Of a DNA stretch of 64,000 bases, positions 20,152-39,564 are shown piece by piece. Numbering within the stretch: position 1 is the stretch's first letter; every line of letters starts with the position of its first letter. Position numbers and translations under genes: made by a program. The notes under the pieces were generated by a model that searched no databases, was not told where the DNA came from, and saw nothing but the letters and a program-made list of their open reading frames with translations. The stretch is from an uncultured Nitrospirales bacterium. GTDB lineage: Bacteria; Hydrogenedentota; Hydrogenedentia; Hydrogenedentales; JAGMZX01. The DNA lies in assembly GCA_964569295.1 (NCBI GenBank), contig CAZMVU010000001.1:151368-215367 (forward strand), read 5' to 3'.

Positions 20152-21897
20152 TCAAAATGCGGGCGGGGTCCACGCGCGCAGGCGTCCGGTTCGTTTGTCG
20201 AAGTGCAGCCAGACATAGTCCGGATGTTCGAGGGAGTGGGCAAAAGTAAAGCGCACGCGCGCCGGCCAGCCCTCGGCGGTCGCCTCTTCGATCTGTATCT
20301 CGAGACCCGGCAACGCAAAACGATCACCCGGCGCCACCGGATGCGCACGCTCGCGGGCCAGGAACCAGCCGGCGCCGTGTGTCACGCGCAATGTGAGGGT
20401 ACGGGAGCCCGTGCGTGCAATCGCCACCGCGCCCATCACGCCGGTATTGGGGGCAAGGCTGTGCACGTGACGCGGAACGGGCAGGCCATCGGCCTTGCGG
20501 ATAAGCGGCAGGTAGCTGCCGAAAAAGGCCACCGGTATGTCGAGCAATACCACGGTCTTTTCTGCGGCGTCTTCGCACAGAGGCGCCCCGCGCAAAATGG
20601 TGTTCATTCCATTGCCGAAAACACCGAAAGCCGCTGTCCGCACAGGCAATACCCATGCCGCCAGGACAAGGTGCATGCCCAGGAGCGCCCATACACCGGC
20701 GTGGCGGAAACGCAGCCACGGGCGCGGCGCCTCCGCATTCGAGGCGCGGGCAACCCACGCCACATAGCGTGTTATCAGGCCGAAGGCGCCGATACCGGTG
20801 AAGAGGAGCAGGCGGTCGCTGGGAAAGGTGGCGCAGATGGGCACGAAAGAGAGCAGCATACCCAGCGCCCAGAAACGGGCGATGGCATCGCGCCGAAGAC
20901 ATGGCCATACGAGCCACAAAACCGCCACGAAAAGCACCAGACCAGCGGCAGTCATGGCGAGTTGCACAGTGCCTGGCATCAGTACATGGATATCGGCAGG
21001 GGGGCCGGCCCATTGCCCGAGAAAGAGCACCGGACCACGCACAAACAAGGCACGCACGAACGTGGCCGGCGCCATCAGCGGGTCGTTGTACAGTTCGGCC
21101 CCGTGAATGCCGTGGCCAAGCAGGCGGTAGACAATACGCCAGCCGATAATGACCACGGCGTACGGGGCGAGGGACAGAAGGCGGTGCCGGCGGGAGCCGT
21201 GGTCTACGAAGACGGCGTAGGCGAAAAGATACGCCGCTGTGGCAATACCCGCTTCTTTCGAGAGCAGGCTTGCCCCCAACATGACCCCGGCAAGCAGGGC
21301 ATACGGTGCGCGGCGGGTTTCGCGCCAGCGAATATGCGCAATAAGGGCGGTGATACCCAAGGCAAGGGCGATGAGGCCGTTGCGGTTCGCAATCCAGCCG
21401 GCGGGCATCGCGTGGGCATCTTCCACGGCGAACAGAAGGACCGCCAGCCCCGCGGCCCAACCCGCGCCCATGACACGCCGGTAGAGCACGCCGGCCAACA
21501 CCGTGCACATGCCAAGCCACAGCAGGCTGTGGGCATGCATGAGGCGCGCACTATCCGGCCAGAGGGCATAATCGAGTTGATGAGTCCAAACGGAAACCGG
21601 GCGCCAGAACGATATTACGAGATCGTCCTGCGTCCACCAGGGGAGAAAGCCGGTATCGCGCAGCGCGCGCGTTTCAGCGGGAACGCCGCGCACAAATGCG
21701 AAGAGCCCACTGCGGCTGTGGCTGAACCCCAACTCCCCCCCTTCGCCGAGTAATACAAGCCGGTGGAGCCAGTCGTCGATGCAAAAACCAAAGAAGAGTG
21801 CCGGCGACGCCAGGAGGATGGCCAGCAATGCGGCCAGCCACGGCATGCGCGGCGAAGCCAGGGCGGACCGTGCACGGCGCAGGCTTGACGTCATCAT
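20152..21897 (-). CDS. Polytopic integral membrane protein, possibly a GT-C-fold glycosyltransferase
   Basis: More than 10 hydrophobic helices. The first extracytoplasmic loop carries DD (FCIDDWLHRL), as in GT-C enzymes. No family assigned. Confidence 0.45.
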   Translation of the reverse strand: MMTSSLRRARSALASPRMPWLAALLAILLASPALFFGFCIDDWLHRLVLLGEGGELGFSHSRSGLFAFVRGVPAETRALRDTGFLPWWTQDDLVISFWRPVSVWTHQLDYALWPDSARLMHAHSLLWLGMCTVLAGVLYRRVMGAGWAAGLAVLLFAVEDAHAMPAGWIANRNGLIALALGITALIAHIRWRETRRAPYALLAGVMLGASLLSKEAGIATAAYLFAYAVFVDHGSRRHRLLSLAPYAVVIIGWRIVYRLLGHGIHGAELYNDPLMAPATFVRALFVRGPVLFLGQWAGPPADIHVLMPGTVQLAMTAAGLVLFVAVLWLVWPCLRRDAIARFWALGMLLSFVPICATFPSDRLLLFTGIGAFGLITRYVAWVARASNAEAPRPWLRFRHAGVWALLGMHLVLAAWVLPVRTAAFGVFGNGMNTILRGAPLCEDAAEKTVVLLDIPVAFFGSYLPLIRKADGLPVPRHVHSLAPNTGVMGAVAIARTGSRTLTLRVTHGAGWFLARERAHPVAPGDRFALPGLEIQIEEATAEGWPARVRFTFAHSLEHPDYVWLHFDKRTGRLRAWTPPAF

Positions 21898-22101: not shown

Positions 22102-22890
22102 TCACAGGCGCTTAAGGCCAAATCCACCCCCGATCTCGATCACGCTGCCCGTCGAGTACGGGAAGTACCCTTCAGCCAATGCTGCCACCGCCTTGCCGCA
22201 GTCTTCGGGCGTGCCCCAGCGCTTCTGGACAAGCAGGCCCTCCTCGATGAGCTTGTCGTACTTCGCCTGCACAGCGCTGGTCATATCGGTCGCGATAATG
22301 CCGGGACGCACGTCGTACACATTTATCCCGTATTCCCCGAGCCGCACGGCGTAGTTCATGGCAGCCATGGAGAGCCCTGCCTTGCTAATGCAGTACTCGG
22401 CCCGATTCGGGCTTGCGGTATCTGACGAAATGCTGGTGATGAAAATAATCGAAGGCGTGGTCTCGCGCCCTTCTTCAATCTGCTCGATCATGCGCACGGC
22501 CACATCCTGCGTAAGGAAGAAGGGACCCCGCATGTTGATATTGATAAGCCGGTCGAAGCTCTCCTCTGTCGTGTCAAGAATGTCGAGCCGCTCGAGCGGC
22601 GCCACCCCGGCGTTATTCACGAGCACATCAATGGCGCCAAAGGCCTCGAGCGTCTCGTCGATCCAGCGGGCGTGGTCACCACGTACCGCGATATTGCCGG
22701 TTACCGGCAAGAAGGACACGCCCAATTCCTCGACGCGCTCCTTCACTTCGTACAGTCCCGTTTCCCGGTTTGCCGGGTCGGCCTTGGTCGCCGCGCCGGC
22801 AACATCGTAACCGTGTCGCGCCAGCGCAATGGCGATACCCCGCCCTATTCCCCGGCTGGCGCCTGTGACAAATGCCGTGCCTTTACCCAT
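22102..22890 (-). CDS. Short-chain dehydrogenase/reductase (SDR) family oxidoreductase
   Basis: TGASRGIGRGIA cofactor motif, NNAG, and a catalytic S ... YxxxK (YCISK). Start chosen at MGKGTAF (ATG at 22890). Confidence 0.85.
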   Translation of the reverse strand: MGKGTAFVTGASRGIGRGIAIALARHGYDVAGAATKADPANRETGLYEVKERVEELGVSFLPVTGNIAVRGDHARWIDETLEAFGAIDVLVNNAGVAPLERLDILDTTEESFDRLININMRGPFFLTQDVAVRMIEQIEEGRETTPSIIFITSISSDTASPNRAEYCISKAGLSMAAMNYAVRLGEYGINVYDVRPGIIATDMTSAVQAKYDKLIEEGLLVQKRWGTPEDCGKAVAALAEGYFPYSTGSVIEIGGGFGLKRL

Positions 22891-23019
22891 GATTGCTCCT
22901 TCCACATAATCGTTGACACCACGCCGGTTCAGGATAACGGGAGTAGAACCTTCGTGCAACGTGTTGTTTTGACACATAAAAAAGCATAAAAAAGCAGGCG
23001 GCGTCACCATCAAACTCGA

Positions 23020-23213: not shown

Positions 23214-23576
23214 ATGTCTGTGAGCCGTGGACCAAAGAACTGGCAAGCGTTGGTGGTGGAGGACATGCCGGAGGAGCGCGAGTTAATCCGGCGCGCCCTC
23301 GAAAAGTATGACATAGAAACAGACGTGGCTGCGGATGGGGTGGTGGCGAATAACCGGAGGCGGGTTAAACGCTACGATATAGTCATCTCGGATTTGCGGA
23401 TGCCGCGAAAGCACGGGCACCAACTTATCCACGAAATCCTCAGCGAGCAGAACCCGCCGCTGGTATTGGCGGTCACGGGGATAGTGGAACCACGGCTGAT
23501 CCTGGATCTAATGCGCCGGGGTCTGCAAAATCTGCTCGGGGAGCGCAAGATAAAGGTTCGTGAAGCCGGGGGATAG
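23214..23576 (+). CDS. Single-domain response regulator (CheY-like receiver)
   Basis: REC pattern (LVVEDMPEE ... DIVISDLRMP ... K in LAVTG). Confidence 0.75.
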   Translation: MSVSRGPKNWQALVVEDMPEERELIRRALEKYDIETDVAADGVVANNRRRVKRYDIVISDLRMPRKHGHQLIHEILSEQNPPLVLAVTGIVEPRLILDLMRRGLQNLLGERKIKVREAGG

Positions 23577-23619
23577 ATATTCTTGCAGTACATCCTGGCA
23601 AGACTCGGAGGGCCATTTT

Positions 23620-25887
23620 ATGGCATCACCATCCCAAGAAAATCGAATGCACGCGCTCATCGCGGCGGACAACACCTGCCCGGTTCTTACAGGACTGCGT
23701 GACGCGTCTACATCCAAGTGCATCGCCGGGCATACAGTCCACGCTTCATGTGATGATTGGGTCGCCGCCCTGCGATCACCCGAACAATGGGGTGTGGCCG
23801 TGCTCGACAGCGCGTTGCTTGCCGGTATGAAGGAGGTGCGCGCCACCATAGCCCGGGCATACAAGGCGCGGCCGGCCGTTCCCCTTCTTCTACTCCTGGA
23901 CGACGAACTTACGGCCACCGAAGCCATGGCCCTGGCGCACCTCGGCCTTTACGACCTGTGCGGCCGGAGCGACTTCGCGCGGTTCAGCACGCTATTGGGG
24001 CAGCTCTGTAACTATACCGCTGATGCACCCACACCAGCGGGCACACGGACCGTGGCGGATTATGCCCTCCTCGCTTTTGCCGAGACAGATATAGGGCTTC
24101 TCGTGGCAACACCAGCGGGGCACATCTTGTGTGCAAACCCTGCCGCCGATTCGCTTTTCTGCCAGGGAAAAGGCAGTCTTCAAGGACAGTCCCTGCCGGT
24201 TCATCCTGCACCGTGTGAGACCGTAAAACACCGGTTCAAGGCGGGCGGCACCGACCATGTGATCGAATTGTCGGCGCAGCCACAGTCATTTCAAGGAGAA
24301 GACGTTTACGTGATTGCCGTACGCGACGTGACCAGCCAGGAGAATGCGCACAGGGTGCAGCACCTGCTTGCCACTGCGATTGACCATACCACCGAGGGCG
24401 TCGTGCTCACAGACACCCATGGGGTGATTCAATACGCAAACCGGGCGTTCCTCGATATTACCGGCTATGAACTGCCAGAACTGCTCAACCACGACGCCAG
24501 TATGCTTGCGAGCACCCGGCACAGCGAACGGTTCTTCTATCGCATGTTCGAGCACTTGCGCAAAGGGGAGACATGGACGGGCGACCTCCTGAACCGCCAC
24601 AAAGACGGGAACGACTACGAACTGCGCATGTCCATATCGCCAATTGCCGATTCCCAAGGCGTCATCACCCACTACATTGCGCTGTGCCAGGACGTCACGA
24701 AGGAAAAGGAATGCCAGCAGCGGCTGCAGCAGTCCCAGAAGCTCGAAGCCATGGGCACGTTGGCCTGCGGTATTGCGCATGACTTCAACAACTCGCTGAG
24801 TATCATCAATGGCTACACACAACTGGTTGCTGCAGCGCTGGACCCGGATTCGAAGCAATGTCAGGACCTGGAACAGGTGTTGAACGCGGCGAATCGCGCG
24901 GGTGATCTGGTGCGGCAGGTGCTCACATTCTCCCGGGAGGAAGAGGACTTTACCAAACCCCTGCGCCTGGATATCGTGGTGAAGGAGGTGGGCAGGTTCC
25001 TCGAAATGGCGTTCCCTGCGACCATCGAATTCACCTACGATAACATCATGCGTGATGCGATCATCAAAGGCGATGCGACGCAACTGCACCAGGTGGTTAT
25101 CAACCTTTGCACAAATGCCAGGGACGCCATGGCCGAAAACGGGGGGGCACTTGACGTCGCACTGGAAGAAGTGACAGAACGCGAGGTCGCCGCGGCTGGC
25201 ATACATGGGGCGGCGGAAGGCCCTTACTACCGGCTTACCATATCGGACACCGGGCCCGGCATGGCGCCGGAAGTGGTGGACCACATCTTCGAGCCGTTCT
25301 ACACCACCAAATCGTGGGCCAAGGGCACCGGTCTCGGCCTGTGGAACGTCGAGAAGTTTGTCACCCACCATGGCGGTGCTATTCACTGTGAGAGCACACC
25401 GGGCGTGGGCACCACCTTCCGCGTGTTTTTTCCCGTCCACAGGCAGCCAAGCGCCAAGCCCAGTTCCGCAGGCAGCCAGATCGCGCCAACAGGCAACGGG
25501 GAACGCCTGCTTGTCGTCGATGACGAGGAACGGATATTGCACATCCTTGAGCGCATGCTCGGCTCACTCAAATACGACGTGACGGCATGCATGGATCCCC
25601 GCGAGGCCCTGGCGCTTTTCCAGCGGGATCCAAACGCTTTCGACCTTCTCGTGACGGATGAGGTCATGCCGCACCTGATCGGCTCAGAACTGGCACGCCA
25701 GGCACGCGCGTTACATCCAGACCTGCCGATCCTGCTCATCACAGGGTACAGCGACCGGCTTACCGCACAACGCGTGCAACGCATCGGAATTGACCGGGTT
25801 CTTATCAAACCGCTGAACAAGCATGAACTCGCCCAGACCGTGAGCGTGCTGCTGACCCAAAACAGCGTAAACAATCCAACCCCGTAA
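23620..25887 (+). CDS. Hybrid sensor histidine kinase (PAS domains + HisKA + HATPase_c + C-terminal REC)
   Basis: H-box (CGIAHDFNNSLSI), G-boxes (GTGLGLWNV), and a C-terminal receiver (LLVVDDEE ... LLVTDEVMP ... LITGYSD). Start chosen at the ATG at 23620, downstream of the REC gene stop. Confidence 0.85.
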   Translation: MASPSQENRMHALIAADNTCPVLTGLRDASTSKCIAGHTVHASCDDWVAALRSPEQWGVAVLDSALLAGMKEVRATIARAYKARPAVPLLLLLDDELTATEAMALAHLGLYDLCGRSDFARFSTLLGQLCNYTADAPTPAGTRTVADYALLAFAETDIGLLVATPAGHILCANPAADSLFCQGKGSLQGQSLPVHPAPCETVKHRFKAGGTDHVIELSAQPQSFQGEDVYVIAVRDVTSQENAHRVQHLLATAIDHTTEGVVLTDTHGVIQYANRAFLDITGYELPELLNHDASMLASTRHSERFFYRMFEHLRKGETWTGDLLNRHKDGNDYELRMSISPIADSQGVITHYIALCQDVTKEKECQQRLQQSQKLEAMGTLACGIAHDFNNSLSIINGYTQLVAAALDPDSKQCQDLEQVLNAANRAGDLVRQVLTFSREEEDFTKPLRLDIVVKEVGRFLEMAFPATIEFTYDNIMRDAIIKGDATQLHQVVINLCTNARDAMAENGGALDVALEEVTEREVAAAGIHGAAEGPYYRLTISDTGPGMAPEVVDHIFEPFYTTKSWAKGTGLGLWNVEKFVTHHGGAIHCESTPGVGTTFRVFFPVHRQPSAKPSSAGSQIAPTGNGERLLVVDDEERILHILERMLGSLKYDVTACMDPREALALFQRDPNAFDLLVTDEVMPHLIGSELARQARALHPDLPILLITGYSDRLTAQRVQRIGIDRVLIKPLNKHELAQTVSVLLTQNSVNNPTP

Positions 25888-26057
25888 GGCGTATACACAC
25901 CTACGCAGTTCCTTTCCGGCAGGGTTCCGTGCTACGCTCGCGCAGGCAAACGGGCAGGCAGCACCCATGGGCAAACGGGTGCGCCACAAGGCAAAGAGCA
26001 CGGTTTGGCTGTTGGCCGGCGAGCATGGCCAAACGATACGTCTTTGGCAGGGAAGCA

Positions 26058-26804
26058 ATGATCCAGGCGGATGAGCTGCGTAAAGTCTTCTACCCCGCTC
26101 GGCAAGCCCCGGTCGTGGCGGTGGCCGGAGCGTCTTTCCATGTGGGCGACGGGGAGGTGCTGGGAATGCTTGGACCGAACGGGGCGGGCAAGACGACGCT
26201 GCTGCGGCTGATGGCGGCTATCGTGCCGCCGACAACAGGACAGTGCCGCGTAAATGAGCACACTGTCACCGAGGCGCCCCAGTCGGTGCGGCGCGGCATC
26301 GGGTTCCTCTCGGGCAATACCAAGCTCTATGGCCGCCTCACGCCGCGGGAAACGTTGCACTACTTCGGGCAACTGTACGGCATGAAGGAAACGGCCATCG
26401 CCGGGCGCACGGAAGTTCTGTGTGACATGCTCGATATGACAGCCTTCCTCGACCGCCGCTGCGACACGCTGTCCGCCGGCCAAATGCAGCGCGTCTCGAT
26501 CGCGCGCTGCATCGTCCACGATCCGCATACGCTCATCCTCGACGAGCCTACGCTGGGCCTCGATATCATGTCGAGCCGCACCATCCTCGACTTCATCGGT
26601 GACGCGCGCACACGGGGCCGCAGCGTCGTCTTCTCGACGCACTACATGGCGGAAGCCGAACGGCTGTGCGACCGCATCGCCTTGTTGCACCGGGGCGTAC
26701 TGCTGGCCGTGGACACCCTCCCGGCGCTGCTCGAACGCACCCGCACGGCGAACTTGCAGGACACGTTCCTCGCGTTGGTCGCGGCAGAAGGGCCGGCGCC
26801 ATGA
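26058..26804 (+). CDS. ABC transporter ATP-binding protein
   Basis: Walker A (GPNGAGKTT), signature LSAGQMQR, and Walker B (LILDEPT). The stop overlaps the downstream start (ATGA). Confidence 0.85.
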   Translation: MIQADELRKVFYPARQAPVVAVAGASFHVGDGEVLGMLGPNGAGKTTLLRLMAAIVPPTTGQCRVNEHTVTEAPQSVRRGIGFLSGNTKLYGRLTPRETLHYFGQLYGMKETAIAGRTEVLCDMLDMTAFLDRRCDTLSAGQMQRVSIARCIVHDPHTLILDEPTLGLDIMSSRTILDFIGDARTRGRSVVFSTHYMAEAERLCDRIALLHRGVLLAVDTLPALLERTRTANLQDTFLALVAAEGPAP

Positions 26805-28849
26805 ACCTGCACATAACGAGAACCATCTGGCGCAAGGAATTGCTGGACACCCTGCGGGACAAGCGCACGCTCGTTATGATGCTCGGCGTGCCGCTGTTGC
26901 TGTATCCGGCGATCACGCTGCTGAGCTTTCAGGGGCTGCTGCTGCTGCATGGACACCTCGAAGAGACGCCTTCCCGGGTAGCTATCTTCACGCAGGCGCC
27001 CAGCCCTCTCGCCGAATGGGTGGCCGCATCACCCCAGGTCGCGCTGATAGATTCCGCGCGCCCCCTGCACGATCTGCAAGAGGGCAGGCTCGATGCGGTG
27101 GTGTTCGCCACGGGCGACCTTCGCCATGCCTTGGCAGAGCGCCGCCCCTTCAAGATCGAAATCCGCTATGACGCCACGGAGATCCCGTCGCGGGAGGCGG
27201 CCGCACGGCTCAGCTCGGCACTGCGCACCAGGCTGCACCGTATCCGGGCTGACCGCCTGGCGGACATCAACCTCTCCCCCGCCTTTGTGACCCCCTTCGA
27301 GGTCACCCGGAAGGATGTGGCGCCGCCCCAGAAAACGACAGGCGTTCTGGTGGGCACCCTGCTGCCCGTGTTTATGGTGATCATGCTCGCCGTGGGCGCT
27401 TTCTACCCGGCCGTGGACCTTACGGCGGGTGAAAAGGAACGTGGCACCTTCGAGACCTTGCTGGCGACGCCCGCATCGAAGCTCGAGATCGTGGCAGGCA
27501 AATTCGGGGCGGTGTTCATGCTCGCCATGGTGACCGGACTGCTGAATATGGCGAGCATGGGCCTCACGCTGGCCTTTGTCTTCATGCAGATTCCGCCCGA
27601 ACTGCAGCAGCGCATGGGCATGACCTTCAACTACCTGCCCGTATCGGCGTTTGCACTGATCGTGGCGGTCATGGTGCCGCTGGCATTCTTCATCGCCGCC
27701 GCCATGATGGCCGTGGCGGTGCTCGCGCGCAGTTTCAAAGAGGCCCAGAACCTCATGATGCCGCTCTTTCTACTGGTCATGCTGCCCAGCATGCTCCCTG
27801 CGGTCCCGGGCGCGGAACTGGGCTCCGGCCTCGAGCTGGTGCCCATCGGCAATGTAGCGCTTCTGTTCAAGGAACTGCTCACCGGTAATGCCACGCTCAA
27901 TGAGGTGTTTATCGTATTCGTGAGCACCGCAGTGCTCGCCATTCCCGCCCTGCTCATGGCTGTCTGGCTCTTCCAGCGCGAAGAAGTGGTGCTCAGTGAC
28001 GACCGCGGCCTGCCGATCACTTTGCGGCGCACCCACTATACGCCACGCGCCGCCCTGCCAGCCGGCACGGCGGTAGGCTACTTCGCCGTGGTCATGCTGC
28101 TCCTGTTCTACGTCGGCACGTTGGTGCAGCAATGGGATATGGTCAGCGGCCTGCTCATCACCGAATGGGGCCTGCTGCTGCTCCCGACATTGGCCTTACT
28201 GTGGTATGTGCGCGTGGATCTGCGCACCGCCTTGCACCTGCGCGGCATGACGGGGCGCAGCGCCGCCGGTGTACTGCTCACCACGATCGCCTGGCCGGTA
28301 CTCGCCATCCAGGCTTCATTCTGGTTCAACCAGGTTCTGCCGGCGCCGGAAAACTATGTGCTCGAGTTCACCCGGGTTATGGAAGAGGCCACGCAGCAGG
28401 CCGGCGCCCCGCTGATGCTGTTTGCGCTTGCCGTGTCGCCGGCGGTGTGCGAGGAAGTCCTTTTCCGCGGCGCGCTCCTTTCCGGCCTTCGCCAGCGGAT
28501 GGGCGGCGTGGCCTGTGTGCTGATCGTGTCGATCCTCTTCGGCCTGTTTCATCTGAGCATCTACCGGTTCTTTCCCACCGCGCTCACGGGCGCCTTTCTC
28601 ACCTACCTCGTGTGGCGGACCGGCTCACTGGCGGCATCCATCTTTGCACACGGGGTTTTCAATGCCGTCCTGTTCTCGTTGCAGCTTCTTCCTATGCCCG
28701 AGTATCTCGCGCCCTGCCTCGATGCGGAGAGAATCGCGTCCTCGGGCTTCTCACCTGGGGTGGTGTTGGCGGCAACCGCCGTATTCCTGGCCGGCCTGCT
28801 CGTAATTGGCAGGCCCGCGTTTGAACACCTGATAAAACCACAGGAATAA
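26801..28849 (+). CDS. ABC-2-type (NatB-like) permease fused to a C-terminal CPBP/CAAX-type intramembrane metalloprotease domain
   Basis: N-terminal roughly 400 aa has an ABC-2 permease topology with a large extracytoplasmic loop. The C-terminal roughly 280 aa carries CPBP motifs (EEVLFRG, FGLFH, HGVFN). Translationally coupled to the ATPase. Confidence 0.7.
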   Translation: MNLHITRTIWRKELLDTLRDKRTLVMMLGVPLLLYPAITLLSFQGLLLLHGHLEETPSRVAIFTQAPSPLAEWVAASPQVALIDSARPLHDLQEGRLDAVVFATGDLRHALAERRPFKIEIRYDATEIPSREAAARLSSALRTRLHRIRADRLADINLSPAFVTPFEVTRKDVAPPQKTTGVLVGTLLPVFMVIMLAVGAFYPAVDLTAGEKERGTFETLLATPASKLEIVAGKFGAVFMLAMVTGLLNMASMGLTLAFVFMQIPPELQQRMGMTFNYLPVSAFALIVAVMVPLAFFIAAAMMAVAVLARSFKEAQNLMMPLFLLVMLPSMLPAVPGAELGSGLELVPIGNVALLFKELLTGNATLNEVFIVFVSTAVLAIPALLMAVWLFQREEVVLSDDRGLPITLRRTHYTPRAALPAGTAVGYFAVVMLLLFYVGTLVQQWDMVSGLLITEWGLLLLPTLALLWYVRVDLRTALHLRGMTGRSAAGVLLTTIAWPVLAIQASFWFNQVLPAPENYVLEFTRVMEEATQQAGAPLMLFALAVSPAVCEEVLFRGALLSGLRQRMGGVACVLIVSILFGLFHLSIYRFFPTALTGAFLTYLVWRTGSLAASIFAHGVFNAVLFSLQLLPMPEYLAPCLDAERIASSGFSPGVVLAATAVFLAGLLVIGRPAFEHLIKPQE

Positions 28850-28892: not shown

Positions 28893-30098
28893 TTGTCCAC
28901 CACCGGCGCCACGCACGAACAACGGCCACTGCGGGTAGCCTTCTGCCATTATGCGGCCGATGTCTTCGGCGGCTCCGACCGCGCATTGTATGACCTGGTG
29001 ACACACCTGCCGCGGGACCGCTTCGCGCCGCACATGCTCTTGCGCCATGGCGACCCGATGATCACGCGCTACCGCGAACACGGCATCCCGGTGGAAACCT
29101 TTCACCTCGTGCCCCCGCGCCGCGCCATCGAGTGGGGCAAGCTGGTCCGCTTTGCTCTGCATTTTCTGCCGGCCTCGCTGCGGCTTGCGGCAGCCATTCG
29201 CCGGATGAACGCCGACGTGGTGCATGTAAACACGTTGTTCAACATGCAGGGGGCGTTCGCGGCGCGGCTCTCGGGGCGGCCGTTGGTTTGGCATGTGCGC
29301 GAGCTGATTCCGGACTCGCGCGTGTTCGGCTGGATGACGCGGCTCGTGGCGCGGTGGAGCACGCGCGCGATCGCCATCTCAGAGGCAGTAGCGGCGGTGC
29401 TCGCGCGGTGCGGCAACCGGCTGCGCACGGTCTTGAACAGTGTGGACCCGCACTTATTCGAAAACCTGCCGCCGCGGTCGCAGACGCGCGCCGAATGGCA
29501 TATTGCCCTGGATGCGCCGGTAGTGTTGTGTGCGGGACGACTCGAGCACTGGAAAGGCCAGCATGTGCTGATCGAGGCAGTGCCCGCCATCCTCGCCGCG
29601 CATCCGGAAGCGGTGGTGCTCGTAGCAGGCGCGGCGGCGGTGAACAAGCCGGGATACTTGACCGGCTTGCAGGAGCGTTGCGCGGCCCTGGACATCCAAG
29701 CGCGGGTCCGGTTCCTCGGCCGGCGGGAAGATGTGCCAGCCCTTATGGCTGCGGCGGATGTGCTGGTGCTGCCTTCCGTGACGCCGGAACCGTTCGGTCT
29801 CACGGTCATCGAGGCAATGGCAGCGGGCTGCCCCGTGGTCGCCACGCGCGCGGGGGGGCCGCTGGACTCCGTGATAGACGGCGAAACAGGCCTGCTGGCG
29901 GCGCCGGGGGCGCCGGAGGACCTGGCGGAAAAGGTAAACCAAGTGCTCTCCGCGCCCGAACGCGCCCGAGCCATGGGGGCGGCCGGAAGAGAACGCGTAT
30001 ACGCGCACTTTACCATTGACCGGGAAGTGGCGGAAATCGCGGCGATTCTCGAACAAGCCGCCGAAAGCCGCAGCGGCCGCCCGGCTACAACTCGTTAA
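28893..30098 (+). CDS. GT4 glycosyltransferase (Glycos_transf_1)
   Basis: GT4 C-terminal EX7E region (PSVTPEPFGLTVIEAMAAGCPVVAT). The start appears to be a TTG at 28893. Confidence 0.8.
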   Translation: MSTTGATHEQRPLRVAFCHYAADVFGGSDRALYDLVTHLPRDRFAPHMLLRHGDPMITRYREHGIPVETFHLVPPRRAIEWGKLVRFALHFLPASLRLAAAIRRMNADVVHVNTLFNMQGAFAARLSGRPLVWHVRELIPDSRVFGWMTRLVARWSTRAIAISEAVAAVLARCGNRLRTVLNSVDPHLFENLPPRSQTRAEWHIALDAPVVLCAGRLEHWKGQHVLIEAVPAILAAHPEAVVLVAGAAAVNKPGYLTGLQERCAALDIQARVRFLGRREDVPALMAAADVLVLPSVTPEPFGLTVIEAMAAGCPVVATRAGGPLDSVIDGETGLLAAPGAPEDLAEKVNQVLSAPERARAMGAAGRERVYAHFTIDREVAEIAAILEQAAESRSGRPATTR

Positions 30099-31335
30099 CG
30101 ATGATTTGATCGAGCGTCTGGCGCTTGCGGATAAGTTGAAAGCCGCCGTCTTTCCTCAGGAGAACCTCAGCGGCTTCCGGGAACGAATTGTAGTTCTTGG
30201 CGCATTGGGAGGCGCAGTAGGCCCCGGCCCCCTCGACCACCACCGCGTCGCCCGGCCGGCACACCGTGAGCATACGCGGGCCGAGCCCCTCCGGGTTGCC
30301 CTTCGCCGGCGTGAGAATATCGCCGCTCTCACAGCAATGCCCCGCCACAAGGTACTCCGCCGTGCCCCCTTCGCCTGTATCGCGCGGCACCACGACAATC
30401 GGGTGAAGCGCGCCGTACATGGCCGGACGCAGCGTCTCCGTCATGCCGGAATCCACCTTGATAAACCGGTAGCCCGCTTCTCCCGTATCGACGACATCGT
30501 GGGCTGTACAAACCAGGGCGCCGGCATTCGCCGTGAGGTACGTGCCCGGCTCGACCTCGAGATGCAGCTTGCGGCCGTGGTCCCGGGCAAAAGCCTCGAA
30601 CTCCGGCACCACGCGCCCTCCGATCTCCTGCACATTCGCCGTTTCTTCGCCGGGCATGCGGGCGACCTTGTAGCCGCCGCCCAGACTGAGCGTACCAACC
30701 TCGGGCAATTCCGCCGCGATCCCGAGCGAGATCTTGGCACAATGCACCCACGTGTCCGGATCGGAGCCGGAACCGATGTGTGTGTGCATACGGGTTATAC
30801 GCAGGTTGTGTTTCTTTCCGATGGCCAACACATCATCGAGGTGCTCATGCCAGATACCGAAGCTCGCCGACGGCCCCCCGACGTTTGTGCGATTCGTGCT
30901 CCCCGAACCGAGGCCGGGATTGATGCGCACACAAACCGCGCTATTCGGCAACAGGCGGCCATAGGTATCGAGCTGGTCCAGCGAACAGGCGTTGAACAAC
31001 ACCCCCAGCCGCACCAGATCACCGAGTTTGCCGGGCAATTCCTGCGCCGTAAGCTGTATACGTTCCGGCGCAACCCCCGCGCGCAACGCCCGCTCCGCCT
31101 CGAACCCGCTCGAGGCGTCGACGTGCAGGCCCTGCGCGTCAAAAAGCCGGAGAATGGCCGCCGTGGGCAGGGCCTTCATCGCATAGCGCACAGTGAGACC
31201 GTAGGCGTTCGGGAAAGCGCGCATCTCCTGCGCGCGGCGCACGAACGTGGCTTCATCATAAACATAAACGGGCGTACCAAAGTGCGCCTGCACATGACGC
31301 ACCTGCTCTTCGGTCATAAACACGAGTTCCTGCAT
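30085..31335 (-). CDS. lysA: Diaminopimelate decarboxylase
   Basis: Full-length PLP fold-III decarboxylase pattern (GTPVYVYD ... YAMKA ... GGGY ... CESGD). Start chosen at the ATG at 31335. Confidence 0.88.
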   Translation of the reverse strand: MQELVFMTEEQVRHVQAHFGTPVYVYDEATFVRRAQEMRAFPNAYGLTVRYAMKALPTAAILRLFDAQGLHVDASSGFEAERALRAGVAPERIQLTAQELPGKLGDLVRLGVLFNACSLDQLDTYGRLLPNSAVCVRINPGLGSGSTNRTNVGGPSASFGIWHEHLDDVLAIGKKHNLRITRMHTHIGSGSDPDTWVHCAKISLGIAAELPEVGTLSLGGGYKVARMPGEETANVQEIGGRVVPEFEAFARDHGRKLHLEVEPGTYLTANAGALVCTAHDVVDTGEAGYRFIKVDSGMTETLRPAMYGALHPIVVVPRDTGEGGTAEYLVAGHCCESGDILTPAKGNPEGLGPRMLTVCRPGDAVVVEGAGAYCASQCAKNYNSFPEAAEVLLRKDGGFQLIRKRQTLDQIIVNEL

Positions 31336-31785
31336 GAACGGGTTCCTTGCTTTGGGTGCAACGTTGCCAGTGATACGTTCCAATACGAGTGAAGCAAACC
31401 AAGGGACTGTGCGCGCGTCCGCGAGCAGATCCCTCTTTGGATCGGCCTCAGGGAAAGACGGGACTCATGGGCAGCCACTCCTGATTGCTTGCTCGTATTT
31501 CCTCTGTGCAGCGCACTTGCGCGCCAATGCAGAAGCTGCTTCCTCTTGTGTTTCTGGTTCGGTTGCCGGCACTGCGGCTGTATGCGCTCAGGAGGGCGCT
31601 AAGGGTAGCATGCCGCCGCGCCCGGTTGCATCTCGCCTGCCCCATGCGCAAGGGCACATTCGGCCCGTTCGTTGTATGCGCGCCGCCGCTGTGCTACGCT
31701 TGGGCTAGGATCGACAAGGAGAGCCCCCGCCCCGTGCCGCTCGCAAACACCACCACGAAACATATGATCCGGAAAGGCCTTTCCC

Positions 31786-33147
31786 ATGCCCAAGGCTAAG
31801 GTCGTCTATGTATGCCAGGAATGCGGCATCACCGTGCCGCGCTGGATGGGCAAGTGTCCCGAGTGCGAGGCATGGAACACGCTTGTAGAAGAACAGGCGC
31901 CGGAGGCGGGCGCCCATGTGCGCGGCTCCTTCGCGACTAACGAGGCGCCCATTCCCATTACGCAAGGCCCGGAGGAAGCGGCGCCGCGCATGACTACCGG
32001 CATCGCGGAGTTCGACCGGGTCATGGGCGGCGGCGTCGTCGATGGATCGATAACGCTCATCGGCGGCGATCCCGGTATCGGCAAGTCCACGCTTATGCTC
32101 CAGGTGGCCCACCGCATTGCCGCACAAGGCATGCGCGTGCTCTACGTCTCCGCGGAGGAATCCTTCGAACAGACGCGTCTGCGCGCACGCCGCCTCCACA
32201 CCCTCCACGACAACCTGCTGCTCTACACCGAGAACAACGTGGGCGCCCTCGTCAAACGGCTGTACAAGGAAGACTTCGCCCTCGTGGTCGTCGATTCGAT
32301 CCAGTCCGTCTACTCGACGCAATTGCCCGGCGTTCCAGGCAGTGTGAGCCAGGTCCGTGAATCCGCAGCCGAGTTTTTGCGTCTAGCCAAGGGAAAGCCG
32401 GTGCCTATCTGCCTCGTGGGACATGTCACCAAGGACGGACAGATCGCGGGACCGCGCCTGTTGGAACACCTCGTGGATGGTACTTTATACTTCGAGGGCG
32501 AAGGCAAACAGGCATTGCGCATCCTTCGGGCGGTCAAGAACCGTTTCGGCTCGACGAACGAGATCGGCGTGTTCGAGATGCGCGAGTCGGGCCTGCACGA
32601 AGTGGCGAACCCGAGCGCGTGGTTCCTCAACGAACGCCCCGACGGCGTGAGCGGCAGCGTCGTGCTGCCGAGCATCGAGGGGAGCCGGCCATTGCTGGTC
32701 GAAGTACAGGCATTGGTGGGCGACAGCCACACGGGCAGCCCGCGGCGCACGGTGACGGGCGTGAACCCGAACCGGGTCTCGCTGCTGCTGGCCGTGCTCG
32801 AAAAACGCGCCGGCCTGCACTTCGCTGATCGCGACGTGTTCGTGAATGTGGCAGGCGGCGCGCGCCTCGAAGAGCCGGCGGCGGATATGGCCGTGGCGCT
32901 CGCGCTGGTATCGAGTTTTCGGGATATGCCCGTGCCGCCGGATGTCGCCGCCTTTGGCGAGGTGGGCCTCGCCGGCGAGATACGCGCGGTAGACCGGGCG
33001 CGGCAACGGGTCGCCGAAGCCGCGAAATTCGGTTTCGCACAGTGTGTTTTGCCCAAAGGGGCAACGGCGGATGTGGCCCCCGGCCCCACGCAGCCGGTGC
33101 CGGTGGCTACCCTGGTAGAAGCGATCGACCTAGTGCTGGAGAGCTGA
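31786..33147 (+). CDS. radA: DNA repair protein RadA (Sms)
   Basis: N-terminal Zn-ribbon (CQECGITVPRWMGKCPECEAWNT), Walker A (GGDPGIGKST), KNRFG motif, and a Lon-like C-terminus. Confidence 0.93.
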   Translation: MPKAKVVYVCQECGITVPRWMGKCPECEAWNTLVEEQAPEAGAHVRGSFATNEAPIPITQGPEEAAPRMTTGIAEFDRVMGGGVVDGSITLIGGDPGIGKSTLMLQVAHRIAAQGMRVLYVSAEESFEQTRLRARRLHTLHDNLLLYTENNVGALVKRLYKEDFALVVVDSIQSVYSTQLPGVPGSVSQVRESAAEFLRLAKGKPVPICLVGHVTKDGQIAGPRLLEHLVDGTLYFEGEGKQALRILRAVKNRFGSTNEIGVFEMRESGLHEVANPSAWFLNERPDGVSGSVVLPSIEGSRPLLVEVQALVGDSHTGSPRRTVTGVNPNRVSLLLAVLEKRAGLHFADRDVFVNVAGGARLEEPAADMAVALALVSSFRDMPVPPDVAAFGEVGLAGEIRAVDRARQRVAEAAKFGFAQCVLPKGATADVAPGPTQPVPVATLVEAIDLVLES

Positions 33148-33148
33148 T

Positions 33149-34231
33149 TTGGCTAAAAAAGGTAAGAAACCGAACGAGGAAGCCTACCGCAAAGCCGTGC
33201 AACTCATCTCGCCGGGCACCCAGGTGCGCGAGGGCATCTCGGCGATTATGCAAAGCGGCACGGGCGCACTCCTGTGCTTCGGGCCGCCCAAGAAGATCGC
33301 CGACCTCTCGGAAGCGGGCGTCAAGGTGGATGCCAAACTCACCCCGCAGCTCCTCTATGAACTCTCGAAAATGGACGGCGCGCTCCTCCTCAACGAAGAC
33401 GGCAGCCGCATCATTTACGCGAACCGCTTCCTCAAGCCCGATGCCACCATCCCCTCACGGGAAACGGGTACCCGCCACCGCGCGGCCGAGCGCCTGGCGC
33501 GTCAGGCCAGTTGCACCGTTATCGCCGTGTCGCAGCGCCGCTCGAGCCTCACTCTCTATGTGCACGACATTCGCCATGTCATGGACTCGATCCCGACGCT
33601 GCTGAACAAGGCGCAGCAGGCCATCCAGACCCTCGAGAAGTACACCTCCGTGCTGCGCCAAACCATGCACGAGCTCAGTGTGCGCGAATTTCAGGACATT
33701 GTCACCATCTTCGACGTGTGCCGCACCATCCAGCGCATGGAGATGGTCGCGCGCATCGCCACAGAAATCGAGCCCTATGTGCTCGAACTGGGCACGGAAG
33801 GCCGCCTTATCAACCTTCAGGTTCAGGAAATGCTCCAGCCCCTGGGCGAGGCCAAACTCGTTGTGCGCGATTACTACCGCGACAAGCAGGAGGGCGGTTA
33901 CGAGGGAGCCTTGCAGCGGATCCACGAGATGCCCGAGGATGAACTGCTGAATCTCAACAGCATCAGCGCGATCCTCGGATACGGCGCCAACATGCGCAAT
34001 GTCGACACCTACCTTACGCCCCGCGGTTACCGCGTACTCATGGGCACGCACCGGCTGTCGCCGCAGATTATCGAAAACCTGGTGCAGCGTTTTGGCTCAC
34101 TCCAGCAGCTCGTGCGGGCGCCGAAAGACGAACTCGTGGCGGTCGAGGGCGTCGGCGAGGTGCTGGCTGAACGCGTGCGCGTGAGCCTCAACCTCCTGCA
34201 CAACCAACTCACCCTCGACGAGCGGAGGTAG
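33149..34231 (+). CDS. disA: DNA integrity scanning protein DisA (diadenylate cyclase)
   Basis: DAC domain (GALL ... DGA ... RHRAA) with a C-terminal HhH region. It starts 1 nt after the radA stop, apparently at a TTG. Confidence 0.85.
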   Translation: MAKKGKKPNEEAYRKAVQLISPGTQVREGISAIMQSGTGALLCFGPPKKIADLSEAGVKVDAKLTPQLLYELSKMDGALLLNEDGSRIIYANRFLKPDATIPSRETGTRHRAAERLARQASCTVIAVSQRRSSLTLYVHDIRHVMDSIPTLLNKAQQAIQTLEKYTSVLRQTMHELSVREFQDIVTIFDVCRTIQRMEMVARIATEIEPYVLELGTEGRLINLQVQEMLQPLGEAKLVVRDYYRDKQEGGYEGALQRIHEMPEDELLNLNSISAILGYGANMRNVDTYLTPRGYRVLMGTHRLSPQIIENLVQRFGSLQQLVRAPKDELVAVEGVGEVLAERVRVSLNLLHNQLTLDERR

Positions 34232-36201: not shown

Positions 36202-37062
36202 TCATTGTAACGGTGCAAGCTCGATCTCGTAGACCCGCGGCCAGCGCTTGCCGGTAACAAAGAGCCGGTCCCCTGCCGCATCGTAGGCAATGCCGTTCAG
36301 TACACCAGGACGCTTACCCGGCAACATGGTGTCCAGAATTCCATCGAGATCAATCCACGCGGTAACCGTCCCGTTCTCTGGATCAATGCCCACGATGTAG
36401 TCGCTCTTCCACACGTTTGCAAATACCGTCCCGTCGATGTATTCGAGCTCGTTCAGGTTACTCACCTCATTGCCACGATCATGAACCACGACCATGCGGT
36501 CAACCTCGAATGTGTCGGTGTCACGGAAGTACAGCCGGTGGGACCCATCGCTCATAATGAACTGCGCACCATCATGGGTAAGCCCCCAACCCTCCGTATC
36601 GTAGCTGTACGTGCGCAGCAGGTCGAACGTCTCCCGGTCGTAGACGAATGCGGTGTTCTTCCGCCAGGTAAGCTGCACAATCTCATCAGCCACGACCGTG
36701 AGCCCCTCGCCGAAGTAGCGTGCATCGAGATCGTGCTGTTGCAACACATCGCCCGTTTCCGGCACGGCACGGCGCAAGCTCGACTGGCCGTAGAGCCCGG
36801 TGCTCTCATAGAAGACGCCGTCCACGTATTGCAGGCCCTGGGTGAAGGCGTTTTCATCGTGCGGGTATGCGTTGATAACGGTATATCCGAAAAACTCGGG
36901 TCCGGCCGCCGCAGGTTCACCTTCCCTATCGTCTTCATGTTCCGGTACTGCTTCACTCTCGCCATCCAAGGCGGGGGGATTCTCCGTTTGCGGCGGCGTG
37001 CAGTTTGTCATGGCCACCAAGAGAAACACCAAGATGACCGCCATATACTTCAGTAAATGCAT
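36202..37062 (-). CDS. Glutaminyl-peptide cyclotransferase (plant/bacterial beta-propeller type), secreted
   Basis: Signal peptide, then the Glu_cyclase_2-like pattern (GYTVINAYPHDENAFTQGL ... GLTHDG). Start chosen at the ATG at 37062. Confidence 0.7.
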   Translation of the reverse strand: MHLLKYMAVILVFLLVAMTNCTPPQTENPPALDGESEAVPEHEDDREGEPAAAGPEFFGYTVINAYPHDENAFTQGLQYVDGVFYESTGLYGQSSLRRAVPETGDVLQQHDLDARYFGEGLTVVADEIVQLTWRKNTAFVYDRETFDLLRTYSYDTEGWGLTHDGAQFIMSDGSHRLYFRDTDTFEVDRMVVVHDRGNEVSNLNELEYIDGTVFANVWKSDYIVGIDPENGTVTAWIDLDGILDTMLPGKRPGVLNGIAYDAAGDRLFVTGKRWPRVYEIELAPLQ

Positions 37063-37221
37063 CGTCCTCTCGCAATCTCGCCGGGGCAGGCGGGCAGACG
37101 AGCCGTGCACGCATACCCCAACCCTGCTCCACAGCAAAGAGAGGAACACAACCAAGCGGCCCTTATACGACGTTGGTGCGTTCCGCTCGTGGCTCGCTGC
37201 ACACTGTCCACAGTACTCCTG

Positions 37222-38373
37222 CTACACATGGGCGCCATTATACCAGCACTTCCTTGCCTCACCGGCATAGGCGGCAATAAGCGCCGGGTCAGCGTCGAAA
37301 AAGTGATCGGACGGACTAAGTATATATCCGCCGCCATCGCCCGCGGCCTCGAAACAACGCCGCACTTCGGCGCGGGTTTCTTCCGGCGTACAGTCCTTGA
37401 AAAAGTGGAACTGGTCGAACCCGCCGATCAGGCCCACCTTGCCGCCGATACGCCGCTTCGCCTCCGCGAGGTCCACATCGCCGCCCATACCCACCGGGGT
37501 GAAGGTCTCGAGCGCGTCCGGCCCCATGGCGGCGAGGTCTTCGAGGATGGGCATCATGCCGCCGCAGGTGTGGTAGACCACGCGCTGACCGGCTTCATGG
37601 GCTGCGGCAATGATGGGGGCGTCATAGGGCGCCACGAAGTCGTTGAATATCTGCGGCGAGATTACCGTGGTCGAGGCGTCGCCACCGCCCAGCTCCAGGA
37701 GATCGTAGGGCGCGCCGTGCATGGAGGCGACGTAGTTCAGCTTGCGGTCGCGCAGAATAGCGAGGAACTCGTGCACCCACTGCGGGTCTTCAAAGGCCGC
37801 CATGATCAGTTTCTCGATACCGTACAGACACGCTGCGTCCTGCCAGCAACCGGGTTGGCCGCCGGTGGGAAACATGGGGAACGTGCCGCGGACAAGCCCA
37901 CGCCCGCCAAAGGCGGCGGCATCACGTTGCGCGGCGGGCACGTCGCACACGGGCCACGGCGCGAACTCCGCAAGAATCTCGATGTCCCGCTTCTCCTTGA
38001 TGGGGTACTCGAGCTGCCAGGTGGTGTGCGGATTCTCTTCAGAGACAGTGGTCAGCGTGCCTTTCGGTGTGTGAATGGCCGTGCGCGTGGCGGAACCATG
38101 GCGGCCCTCGGCCGTCTCCTGTTCGTACCACCACTGGTCCGACTCGACCCACTCGGGGACCGTTTCGCTATGGCGTTCGCCGCGCGCAGTATCCGGCCCG
38201 AAGTGAACCGGCCATGTGATCGGGTCCAGTCCGAAGTGGTCGAAGAACGTCTGCTCGCCCATGCCGCCCATGTAGTTATCGAGGAAATACGGCATCACGT
38301 GGTGCGTGGTCACCGGCAGCCGGTCGGGCGTGCGGCGTTCGAGCGCGGCGATGAAACGTTCCTTGGGTGTCAT
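37222..38373 (-). CDS. Uroporphyrinogen-decarboxylase-like (URO-D/MtaA/CmuA family) protein
   Basis: The N-terminus (MTPKERFIAALERRTPDRLPV) and overall length are typical of the URO-D-like family. Its stop overlaps the upstream kinase start by 4 bp. Confidence 0.7.
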   Translation of the reverse strand: MTPKERFIAALERRTPDRLPVTTHHVMPYFLDNYMGGMGEQTFFDHFGLDPITWPVHFGPDTARGERHSETVPEWVESDQWWYEQETAEGRHGSATRTAIHTPKGTLTTVSEENPHTTWQLEYPIKEKRDIEILAEFAPWPVCDVPAAQRDAAAFGGRGLVRGTFPMFPTGGQPGCWQDAACLYGIEKLIMAAFEDPQWVHEFLAILRDRKLNYVASMHGAPYDLLELGGGDASTTVISPQIFNDFVAPYDAPIIAAAHEAGQRVVYHTCGGMMPILEDLAAMGPDALETFTPVGMGGDVDLAEAKRRIGGKVGLIGGFDQFHFFKDCTPEETRAEVRRCFEAAGDGGGYILSPSDHFFDADPALIAAYAGEARKCWYNGAHV

Positions 38374-39560: not shown

Positions 39561-39564
39561 GGGC

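Follow-up and report, generated by a model that had tools for sequence, protein, structure and literature searches.

An ABC-2 permease fused to a CPBP intramembrane protease and coupled to an ABC ATPase: a member of the NF041647 family with a predicted role at the outer face of the membrane

The NatAB, YhaQP and LnrLMN systems of Bacillus subtilis are ABC-2 exporters with a six-helix type V fold, in which an extracytoplasmic domain of five strands with flanking helices is inserted between TM1 and TM2. Their permeases end after TM6. In NatAB the ATPase, NatA, forms a subunit of its own and lacks a regulatory domain. A protease covalently joined to an ABC exporter is known from the PCATs, in which a type IV exporter, its ATPase part of the same chain, carries a soluble, cytoplasmic C39 cysteine peptidase and the cut precedes export.

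The roles of CPBP proteases in bacteria are in general poorly defined. Some proteins with this fold have known roles; among these, the MrtX myxosortase and SpdC are stand-alone proteins. The structurally characterised homologue MmRce1 (PDB 4CAD) is a type II CAAX prenyl endopeptidase and glutamic intramembrane protease whose cavity is directed towards the cytosol; it is a metal-independent glutamate/histidine protease (PMC5874806). In streptolysin-S-type clusters, a CPBP-type protease, SagE, and the ABC transporter SagGHI act on one peptide and are encoded in one operon (PMC4513790). These are separate proteins, and they belong to a biosynthetic cluster with a precursor gene.

Here we analysed a 64,000-nt stretch of DNA (from here: the window) containing a two-gene operon in which such a transporter and such a protease are brought together. 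The 248-aa ABC ATPase ORF (26058-26804) is coupled to a 682-aa ORF by an ATGA overlap, the ATG at 26801-26803 lying over the TGA that ends at 26804, and the second ORF runs uninterrupted to 28849 (Table 1). The first-pass annotation had read the product of the second gene as an ABC-2/NatB-like permease of about 400 aa joined to a CPBP domain with intact EExxxR, FxxxH and HxxxN motifs, and had noted the overlap with the ATPase gene. Pfam domains, an AlphaFold model, the single ORF and direct translation confirm this description. The ATPase carries the Walker A motif GPNGAGKT, the signature LSAGQ and the Walker B motif LILDE; its nearest NCBIfam models are DrrA/NodI/GldA-type ABC-2 ATPases, every one of which scored under its cutoff. 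An in-frame alternative ATG at 26025, used by one public gene call, would extend this subunit to 259 aa.

Table 1. Coordinates of the operon and of the domains and motifs of the fused protein within the window
Feature	Coordinates	Strand	Details
ABC transporter ATP-binding subunit, 248 aa	26058..26804	+	PF00005 E 3.6e-30; Walker A, signature, Walker B
Fused ABC-2 permease / CPBP intramembrane protease, 682 aa	26801..28849	+	NF041647 ABC_perm_CPBP, 684.9 bits
ABC-2 (type V) transmembrane domain, residues 1-393	26801..27979	+	Elbow helix 3-19, TM1 21-55, TM2-TM6, re-entrant helix 348-360
Extracytoplasmic domain between TM1 and TM2, residues 56-180	26966..27340	+	Five strands, flanking helices
Best-conserved permease block GAFYPAVDLTAGEKERGTFETLL, residues 199-221	27395..27463	+	End of TM2 and cytoplasmic helix 211-221
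Cytoplasmic linker FQREEVVLSDDRGLPITLRRTHYTPRAALP, residues 391-420	27971..28060	+	Translation
CPBP / Rce1-like domain, eight TM helices, residues 421-670	28061..28810	+	Rce1-like PF02517, residues 536-623 (6e-21)
Motif 1 CEEVLFR, C550-E551-E552-x3-R556	28448..28468	+	Fourth CPBP helix; direct translation
Motif 2 FGLFH, F580-x3-H584	28538..28552	+	End of fifth CPBP helix; direct translation
Motif 3 HGVFN, H617-x3-N621	28649..28663	+	Seventh CPBP helix; direct translation

On the 682-aa product, Pfam matched ABC2_membrane_3 to residues 21-387 (E 3e-20) and ABC2_membrane_2 to residues 8-395 (7e-20). Both folds are present in the AlphaFold2 model of the fused protein (pLDDT 82.3, pTM 0.75). The permease half has the make-up of a type V exporter, with a six-helix domain that has an elbow helix at its N-terminus and, between TM5 and TM6, a re-entrant helix, and a fold search with the model matched it to known type V permeases. 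Such structural matches came from fold searches, whereas a PDB sequence search with the family profile returned no homologue at E <= 0.83. The fusion shares the six-helix fold and the extracytoplasmic domain with NatAB, YhaQP and LnrLMN and the separate ATPase lacking a regulatory domain with NatA, but continues beyond TM6 into an eight-helix protease. Its likeness to these exporters, to which sodium and linearmycin have been assigned as substrates, is by fold and domain alone.

The best-conserved permease block is nearly invariant throughout 32 family members, and E211, K212, E213 and R214 are kept in 76-79 of 80 loci. Given where it sits in the type V fold, the cytoplasmic helix 211-221 is presumed to be the helix that couples to the NBD. 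The linker that follows the permease carries about five K+R per sequence and includes residues with pLDDT <50 in the model (395-404); within the close set its F391, Q392, L398, G403 and R410 do not vary.

In the protease half, the three motifs lie on helices 4, 5 and 7 of the CPBP domain, as in the Rce1 fold. The spacing of 33 residues between E551 and H584 equals that between E140 and H173 of MmRce1, and the MmRce1 counterparts of the motif 3 pair form the oxyanion hole (PMC5874806). E551, R556, F580, H584, H617 and N621 are invariant in the 32 family members, and 78 of 79 loci, drawn from at least 13 phylum-level groups, carry all three motifs in intact form. This invariance across members argues that the catalytic residues are under selection. 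A cysteine ahead of the catalytic glutamate pair (C550 in the window protein), present in 75 of the 79 loci, sets the family apart from Rce1 and MmRce1. The domain had been called a metalloprotease in the first-pass annotation; this label is outdated because MmRce1 is metal-independent (PMC5874806).

The model contains six ABC-2 and eight CPBP helices. Among the 32 sequences, K+R were enriched in every predicted cytoplasmic loop; for the loops of the CPBP domain the values were 3.4, 3.2, 1.1 and 3.3 inside versus 0.6, 1.4, 0.0 and 1.5 outside. The permease domain is predicted to terminate on the cytoplasmic side, and R556 lies at that end of its helix which faces the cytoplasm. The cavity of MmRce1 has its mouth on the side away from the chain termini and R145 (PMC5874806). 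Homology and charge bias taken together, the active-site cone should open on the side opposite the cytoplasmic end of the permease, and the protease cavity of the fusion is predicted to open to the outer face and outer leaflet of the cytoplasmic membrane, beside the extracytoplasmic domain of the permease. We had also considered a cavity on the side of the chain termini, which would give a cytoplasmic, PCAT-like cut, and dropped it, as the Rce1 review shows the opposite (PMC5874806). The fusion thus differs from Rce1 both in sitting behind a transporter and in the predicted direction of its cavity. To the PCATs it is alike in concept; it differs from them in combining a membrane-embedded glutamic protease, probably outward-facing, with a type V permease and a separate ATPase, and Pfam gave no C39 or ABC_membrane match.

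The fusion is already known. The window protein matches the NCBIfam equivalog NF041647, ABC_perm_CPBP, which is named for precisely this architecture, with 684.9 bits against a cutoff of 435 (E 1.3e-205), residues 2-627 aligning to positions 1-633 of the 636 in the model. RefSeq records already bear the family name. It is a member without structural differences, so the sequence feature itself adds nothing new, and the fusion is no unrecognised oddity. Full-length relatives occur in at least 592 GTDB species representatives from at least 13 phylum-level groups, 2,402 protein clusters at 90% identity match at least one domain of the family, and ten diverse homologues scored 595-749 bits end to end on NF041647. 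Our literature search found no paper on an ABC permease-CPBP fusion and no biochemical or genetic data on any family member; Haft's myxosortase preprint does not mention the fusion. The family is large and phylogenetically broad, and its cultured carriers include Sorangium, Paludibaculum fermentans, Lachnospiraceae bacterium A4 and a plasmid of Paraclostridium sordellii.

Two objections that the first-pass annotation had raised against itself fall away on these data. The C-terminal region might have lacked the CPBP motifs or fold; Pfam, the model and the translation agree that both are there. A sequencing error might have merged two genes; the single ORF is not an artefact because an identical 682-aa protein is recorded on two public contigs (one of them displayed, Logan SRR11308339) and homologues with the full length of about 680 aa are plentiful. 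NCBI also holds a protein 95% identical to the window fusion. With the family in at least 592 genomes and end-to-end model scores, we give an assembly merger, taken jointly with an anti-phage 'Abi' defence gene, practically no chance; for the latter there was no PADLOC match, and among 50,697 phage records none contained a full-length copy. CPBP domains bear a historical 'Abi' label, and no evidence supporting either reading was found.

To compare the gene neighbourhood, six-frame ORFs with a minimum length of 70 aa were taken from 85 related loci and clustered all against all. In 79 of these loci the gene immediately upstream, in the same orientation, codes for a homologous ATPase, and this is the only neighbour common to different lineages, which points to a self-sufficient two-gene unit. 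The other large clusters proved to be antisense shadow ORFs of the ATPase and fusion genes. A divergent PRK12745-type SDR gene and a convergent lysA-like gene were rejected as partners, their association being lineage-level synteny found mainly in Hydrogenedentota-type loci. The SDR neighbour is 70-85% identical among those loci, while the 'SDR' neighbours in Acidobacteria are not orthologues because they are merely 31-33% identical.

The first-pass annotation had also proposed a search for neighbouring bacteriocin-like small ORFs. None neighboured the operon in the window. Across the 85 loci, 1,508 ORFs of 25-69 aa lying no more than 1.5 kb from the operon were clustered; none proved conserved, the clusters being solely lineage-restricted or of low complexity. 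LanM and LanA queries had no matches in these chromosomal loci. A PCAT query matched through ABC ATPase similarity alone, except for an unrelated exporter in one locus, and an S8 query gave weak matches in two Acidobacteria loci. In the window, no LanM, precursor or modification genes were found within about 15 kb on either side of the operon; the fusion differs in this from SagE and SagGHI, as it does in having the two activities in one chain.

A LanFEG-like placement inside a bacteriocin cluster was seen for the P. sordellii plasmid member only, and not in the window. On that plasmid (NZ_CP080292.1), LanM, two genes for lantibiotics of the lichenicidin-A2 type and a distinct peptidase-domain ABC exporter are followed immediately downstream by the ATPase gene and an NF041647 member (704 bits, 26% identity to the window protein). 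The cluster's own exporter already takes care of export and leader removal, which fits an immunity role for the pair. Beside a LanM cluster on a plasmid of Clostridium estertheticum there is a NatB-like permease that is not part of a fusion and shares the signature motifs.

Our best reading, held tentatively, is that the operon encodes an ATP-driven 'extract-and-cleave' module for membrane-inserted peptides. By analogy with type V systems, two ATPase and two permease copies would form a self-contained ABC exporter, in which an eight-helix Rce1-type glutamic intramembrane endopeptidase with a full catalytic set is joined covalently behind the six-helix ABC-2 domain. Hydrophobic or amphipathic peptides embedded in the bilayer would be pulled out or expelled by the ABC-2 half and cut at the outer face by the protease fused to it. 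The outcome may be self-protection or clearance, in some hosts as immunity to bacteriocins or antimicrobial peptides and elsewhere as general membrane hygiene. The topology and the single plasmid lantibiotic context plausibly tilt the function slightly towards such immunity or clearance; the immunity context is one fused example, which is only 26% identical to the window protein. The setting in the window and the synteny in Hydrogenedentota fit a core cellular function equally well as an orphan immunity function. The guess of the first-pass annotation, an export-and-process or immunity machine, stays plausible. A wider proposal, that the family is a widespread 'extract-and-clip' machine, powered by ATP, for polypeptides that are lipid-anchored or inserted in the membrane, with a use in envelope sorting or hydrolase release or in broad-spectrum peptide immunity, is possible but in our view doubtful.

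Several other functions have to be weighed against extraction and cleavage. The operon could be a maturation or secretion machine whose ABC-2 half exports or flips a hydrophobic or lipidated peptide or protein segment made by the cell itself, after which the outward CPBP domain clips the leader or anchor; it would then be a fused version of SagE and SagGHI. An outward cavity is compatible with cleavage following translocation, the catalytic and ATPase motifs are intact and the N-terminus of the fusion weakly matches the SagH permease model. A dedicated system would normally accompany its substrate gene, however, and neither a precursor gene nor a conserved small ORF was found near the operon in the 85 loci, while the sole biosynthetic cluster bearing a family member has a separate peptidase-exporter. 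We consider this reading unlikely. The same degree of doubt applies to sorting or control of envelope proteins, in which the CPBP domain would cleave or hold the anchors of exported proteins, as MrtX cleaves and as SpdC holds the hydrolase SagB, and the ABC-2 half would clear away the anchor that is left or supply the energy for release, much as RasP intramembrane proteolysis depends on the EcsAB transporter. In other lineages, envelope enzymes (a GH25 muramidase, Extensin-like_C and GT4) are encoded directly downstream of the operon and hint at a different, cell-envelope role. These associations represent only about three independent lineage events with differing enzyme families, however, and no sorting-signal protein family was linked to the fusion in the present analysis. 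The sorting models scored far under their cutoffs (MrtS 31.2 versus 130, MrtJ 27.7 versus 75, PEP-CTERM CAAX TIGR03008 20.9 versus 81), and the MrtX model was not among the NCBIfam matches of the window protein. Moreover, SpdC is non-catalytic, whereas the NF041647 family keeps all catalytic residues.

This conservation, in 78 of 79 loci across phyla, also bears on a plain NatAB-type efflux pump for sodium or small solutes, in which the CPBP domain would serve only structure or regulation and would not act as a protease; for a non-catalytic appendage such conservation is unexpected. The extracytoplasmic domain and fold do resemble those of NatB, some CPBP-fold proteins such as SpdC work non-catalytically, and relatives carry the JGI/KEGG-style label 'sodium transport system permease protein', but this label goes back, by homology transfer, to one Bacillus system and applies to the N-terminal half only. 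We regard the efflux pump as very improbable.

The fusion pins both the predicted orientation of the protease and its energy source, which makes it a convenient experimental entry point. If extraction and cleavage as proposed here are true, they would constitute a new mode of coupling ATP hydrolysis to intramembrane proteolysis and could account for orphan resistance to membrane-active peptides across many uncultivated phyla. Should the wider clipping proposal hold, bacterial CPBP proteases would gain a defined, energy-coupled mechanism.

A two-component system is encoded upstream of the operon (23214-25887); its kinase has PAS domains and, by eye, no obvious transmembrane segment. We considered it as a Bce/Nat/Lnr-like sensor and rejected it, since it is absent from the relatives examined (L002 and L003). 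L005 has only a PAS kinase gene, located downstream on the opposite strand. The surroundings of the operon in the window are housekeeping and glycoside-hydrolase genes, and this synteny is kept within Hydrogenedentota.

The first-pass annotation had described an ATPase gene overlapping, by ATGA, a gene for an ABC-2 permease fused to a CPBP protease with intact motifs, and ORF reading, translation and Pfam searches confirmed this in all particulars. The ATPase product matched ABC_tran (E 3.6e-30) and contains Walker A, signature and Walker B motifs; an in-frame ATG is also present at 26025 and was chosen as start by one public gene call. In the fused product, Pfam placed ABC2_membrane_3 and ABC2_membrane_2 at residues 8–395 and the Rce1-like domain (PF02517) at residues 536–623, and direct translation verified CEEVLFR, FGLFH and HGVFN at the expected coordinates.

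Coordinates of the ATPase/fused-permease operon and its neighbours in the window
Feature	Position	Strand	Remark
PRK12745-type SDR	22102-23013	-	neighbour
Response regulator	23214-23576	+	neighbour
PAS hybrid histidine kinase	23560-25887	+	neighbour
Two ABC genes (ATPase and fused permease)	26058-28849	+	
ABC ATPase ORF	26058 (ATG) to 26804 (end of TGA)	+	ORF reading; co-oriented with next ORF
Fused permease-protease ORF	26801 (ATG) to 28849	+	682 aa; start codon within the ATGA overlap
GT4 glycosyltransferase	28893-30098	+	43 nt downstream of fused gene
lysA-like decarboxylase	30085-31383	-	neighbour
radA	31786-33147	+	neighbour
disA	33149-34231	+	neighbour

An NCBIfam search matched the fused protein nearly end to end to NF041647 "ABC_perm_CPBP" (684.9 bits; cutoff 435 bits). 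Since this family is already curated and named, with the window protein as a typical representative, the architecture is not novel; no published study of the permease-CPBP fusion was found in the literature searched. Of the candidates scored in a protein-database search, 2,402 clusters passed E ≤ 0.001, single-domain matches included. The best 120 of these are all 670–719 aa long with both Pfam domains, and some already carry the exact NCBI name of NF041647; they come mostly from Candidatus Hydrogenedentes. Relatives were found in at least 592 species in a GTDB scan using one genome per species, under labels including Hydrogenedentota, Phycisphaerae/Planctomycetota, Nitrospirales, Acidobacteriota, Lentisphaeria/Victivallales, Verrucomicrobiota, KSB1, Neomarinimicrobiota, Zhuqueibacterota, Gemmatimonadota, Sericytochromatia, Myxococcota (several complete Sorangium genomes) and Bacillota (many Lachnospiraceae). 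Ten relatives picked for diversity scored 595–749 bits against NF041647. The identical protein was also seen in two public contigs, and NCBI contains one that is 95% identical. The merging of two genes by a sequencing error, which the first-pass annotation had considered, is thereby excluded; the fusion is old and widespread.

An AlphaFold2 model made from a 32-sequence family alignment reached a mean pLDDT of 82.3 and a pTM of 0.75, with low confidence confined to the linker 395–404 and the final nine residues. The permease half is modelled as an elbow helix, TM1, a domain of ~125 residues (five strands plus flanking helices) and five further TM helices, the last preceded by a short re-entrant helix. 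Its block GAFYPAVDLTAGEKERGTFETLL is near-invariant and family-specific; helix 211–221 within it occupies the position at which type V permeases contact their ATPase, and is presumed to be the coupling helix. In the protease half, E551, R556, F580, G581, H584, H617 and N621 are invariant in the alignment and E552 is kept in at least 90% of it. Among loci with a match extending to the last motif, 78 of 79 encode all three normally spaced CPBP motifs in correct-frame translations, the exception running out at a contig edge. This conservation argues that the fused protease is under selection for catalysis, unlike SpdC, which has the CPBP fold but is non-catalytic. The cysteine directly ahead of the Glu pair (Cys550, codon 28448–28450) lies outside the canonical CPBP motif and is family-specific; it is invariant in the alignment and present in 75/79 loci across phyla.

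Engagement of the ATPase requires a cytoplasmic location for the permease's N-terminus, its 209–226 loop and the linker that follows TM6. Across the 32 sequences, Lys and Arg are concentrated in all predicted inside loops: the mean K+R is 3.4, 3.2, 1.1 and 3.3 for the inside CPBP loops and 5.2 for the linker, against 0.6, 1.4, 0.0 and 1.5 for the outside loops. Both ends of the CPBP domain are therefore predicted to be cytoplasmic, and R556 to mark the cytoplasmic end of its helix. The crystal structure of MmRce1 has both N- and C-terminus on the side away from the mouth of the conical active-site cavity; R145 in EExxxR makes up the closed base of the cone, on the side of the termini, and a lateral opening between helices 2 and 4 connects the cavity with the bilayer (PMC5874806). 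By this geometry, the cavity of the fusion would be expected to face the periplasm or the outside, as does the extracytoplasmic domain of the permease. Such an orientation would favour action on outer-leaflet substrates and speaks against a PCAT-like route, in which cleavage in the cytoplasm precedes export. It is also consistent with MrtX, which cuts at a motif located extracytoplasmically, next to a C-terminal membrane anchor (PMC11980579).

The linker sequence FQREEVxLSEE+G (residues 391–403; 27971–28009) is strongly conserved among close relatives, and its region is the only internal low-confidence segment of the model (pLDDT below 50). It could be a functional motif, for instance one that contacts the ATPase or that acts in autoregulation or as a pseudo-substrate.

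The operon lies in ordinary chromosomal DNA of the window with no biosynthetic cluster seen around it; RsgA, a methyltransferase and glycoside hydrolases are encoded farther away. ORF clustering across 85 loci carrying the fused gene identified the ATPase as the sole neighbour whose conservation goes further than lineage-level synteny. In 79/85 it is the gene immediately upstream, in the same orientation; in one locus it is 6.7 kb away, one is cut by a contig end, and four (L023, L026, L038, L039) have no ABC ATPase within 8 kb, so that their permease-protease genes are orphans and any ATPase partner must be encoded elsewhere. The SDR and lysA-like genes represent lineage-level synteny, chiefly in Hydrogenedentota-type loci. 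The two-component pair at 23214–25887, inserted between SDR and operon in the window lineage, is absent from the relatives L002 and L003, and L005 has just a PAS kinase downstream on the opposite strand; the pair is therefore rejected as a conserved regulator. Its kinase has an apparent N-terminal pseudo-receiver region and no TM segment obvious by eye.

Two plasmids with LanM clusters bear on function. On Paraclostridium sordellii NZ_CP080292.1, genes for LanM, two lichenicidin-A2-type lantibiotics, a flavodoxin, an ABC exporter with a peptidase domain and a regulator are followed by an ATPase and a 682-aa protein of the NF041647 family (704 bits). Other genes of this cluster thus already provide for export and leader removal, and the pair sits where immunity transporters usually do. 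On Clostridium estertheticum NZ_CP086145.1, an unfused NatB-like permease (~394 aa) carrying the same GEKERGTLE and SFKEAQ motifs adjoins, together with an ATPase, another LanM lanthipeptide cluster. This permease gene crosses the record origin, which is why it is missing from the feature table.

The unit is probably a self-sufficient ABC exporter with an active, outward-facing protease on its permease. The export-and-process or immunity machine proposed at first is partly supported. Our preferred, still tentative reading is that it would extract membrane-lodged peptides at the expense of ATP and cleave them, serving immunity beside a producer cluster and, in other settings, membrane clearance or orphan resistance. 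A role in maturing an endogenous product by export and subsequent clipping, modelled on SagE and SagGHI (PMC4513790), appears rather unlikely and is weakened by the absence of a linked precursor. The 85 loci contain neither a LanM-type gene nor any conserved small ORF near the operon. The fused protein had no defence-system match.

We give a similarly small chance to anchor processing or control of envelope enzymes, comparable to MrtX, SpdC-SagB or the dependence of RasP on EcsAB (PMC2996298). The fold match to SpdC and wall-enzyme neighbours lend it thin support. Among 29 close same-strand downstream genes, three families of envelope enzymes recur (examples include L052:10033-10974 and L042:10257-11165): five encode Extensin-like_C (PF06904; all Sorangium, with a lipoprotein-type signal), five a GH25 muramidase with hydrophobic, TM-like N-terminus (Lachnospiraceae) and three a GT4 glycosyltransferase, including the window and L002. 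Only some three lineage events underlie this possible link to the cell envelope. That the CPBP domain is an inert appendage of a plain sodium pump is unlikely because the catalytic residues are conserved. What remains of interest is a large, unstudied family whose fusion constrains how a bacterial CPBP protease is oriented and how it is coupled to ATP, and which is therefore a reasonable experimental target, yet unsurprising to a specialist.

In L064 (3824-4849) and seven other Lachnospiraceae loci, an extra stand-alone CPBP protease gene (~340 aa; motifs EETLFRG and HMLFNG) immediately precedes the pair. Close to the operon, an AMP-binding, acyl-CoA-ligase-like gene (~550 aa) is found repeatedly in Lachnospiraceae and in two further lineages (L052, L056, L058, L067, L072, L078, L038, L046). 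In the window, two consecutive ORFs of 459 and 430 aa (37057–39659, + strand) gave no Pfam match at E ≤ 1e-5. A 581-aa ORF (20152–21897, - strand), with many hydrophobic, membrane-like stretches by eye and without a hit in Pfam or NCBIfam, shares 49% identity with a 585-aa ORF at the same position near the SDR in the relative L002 (5379-7136); its product is a conserved membrane protein without assigned family, possibly a GT-C-like glycosyltransferase.
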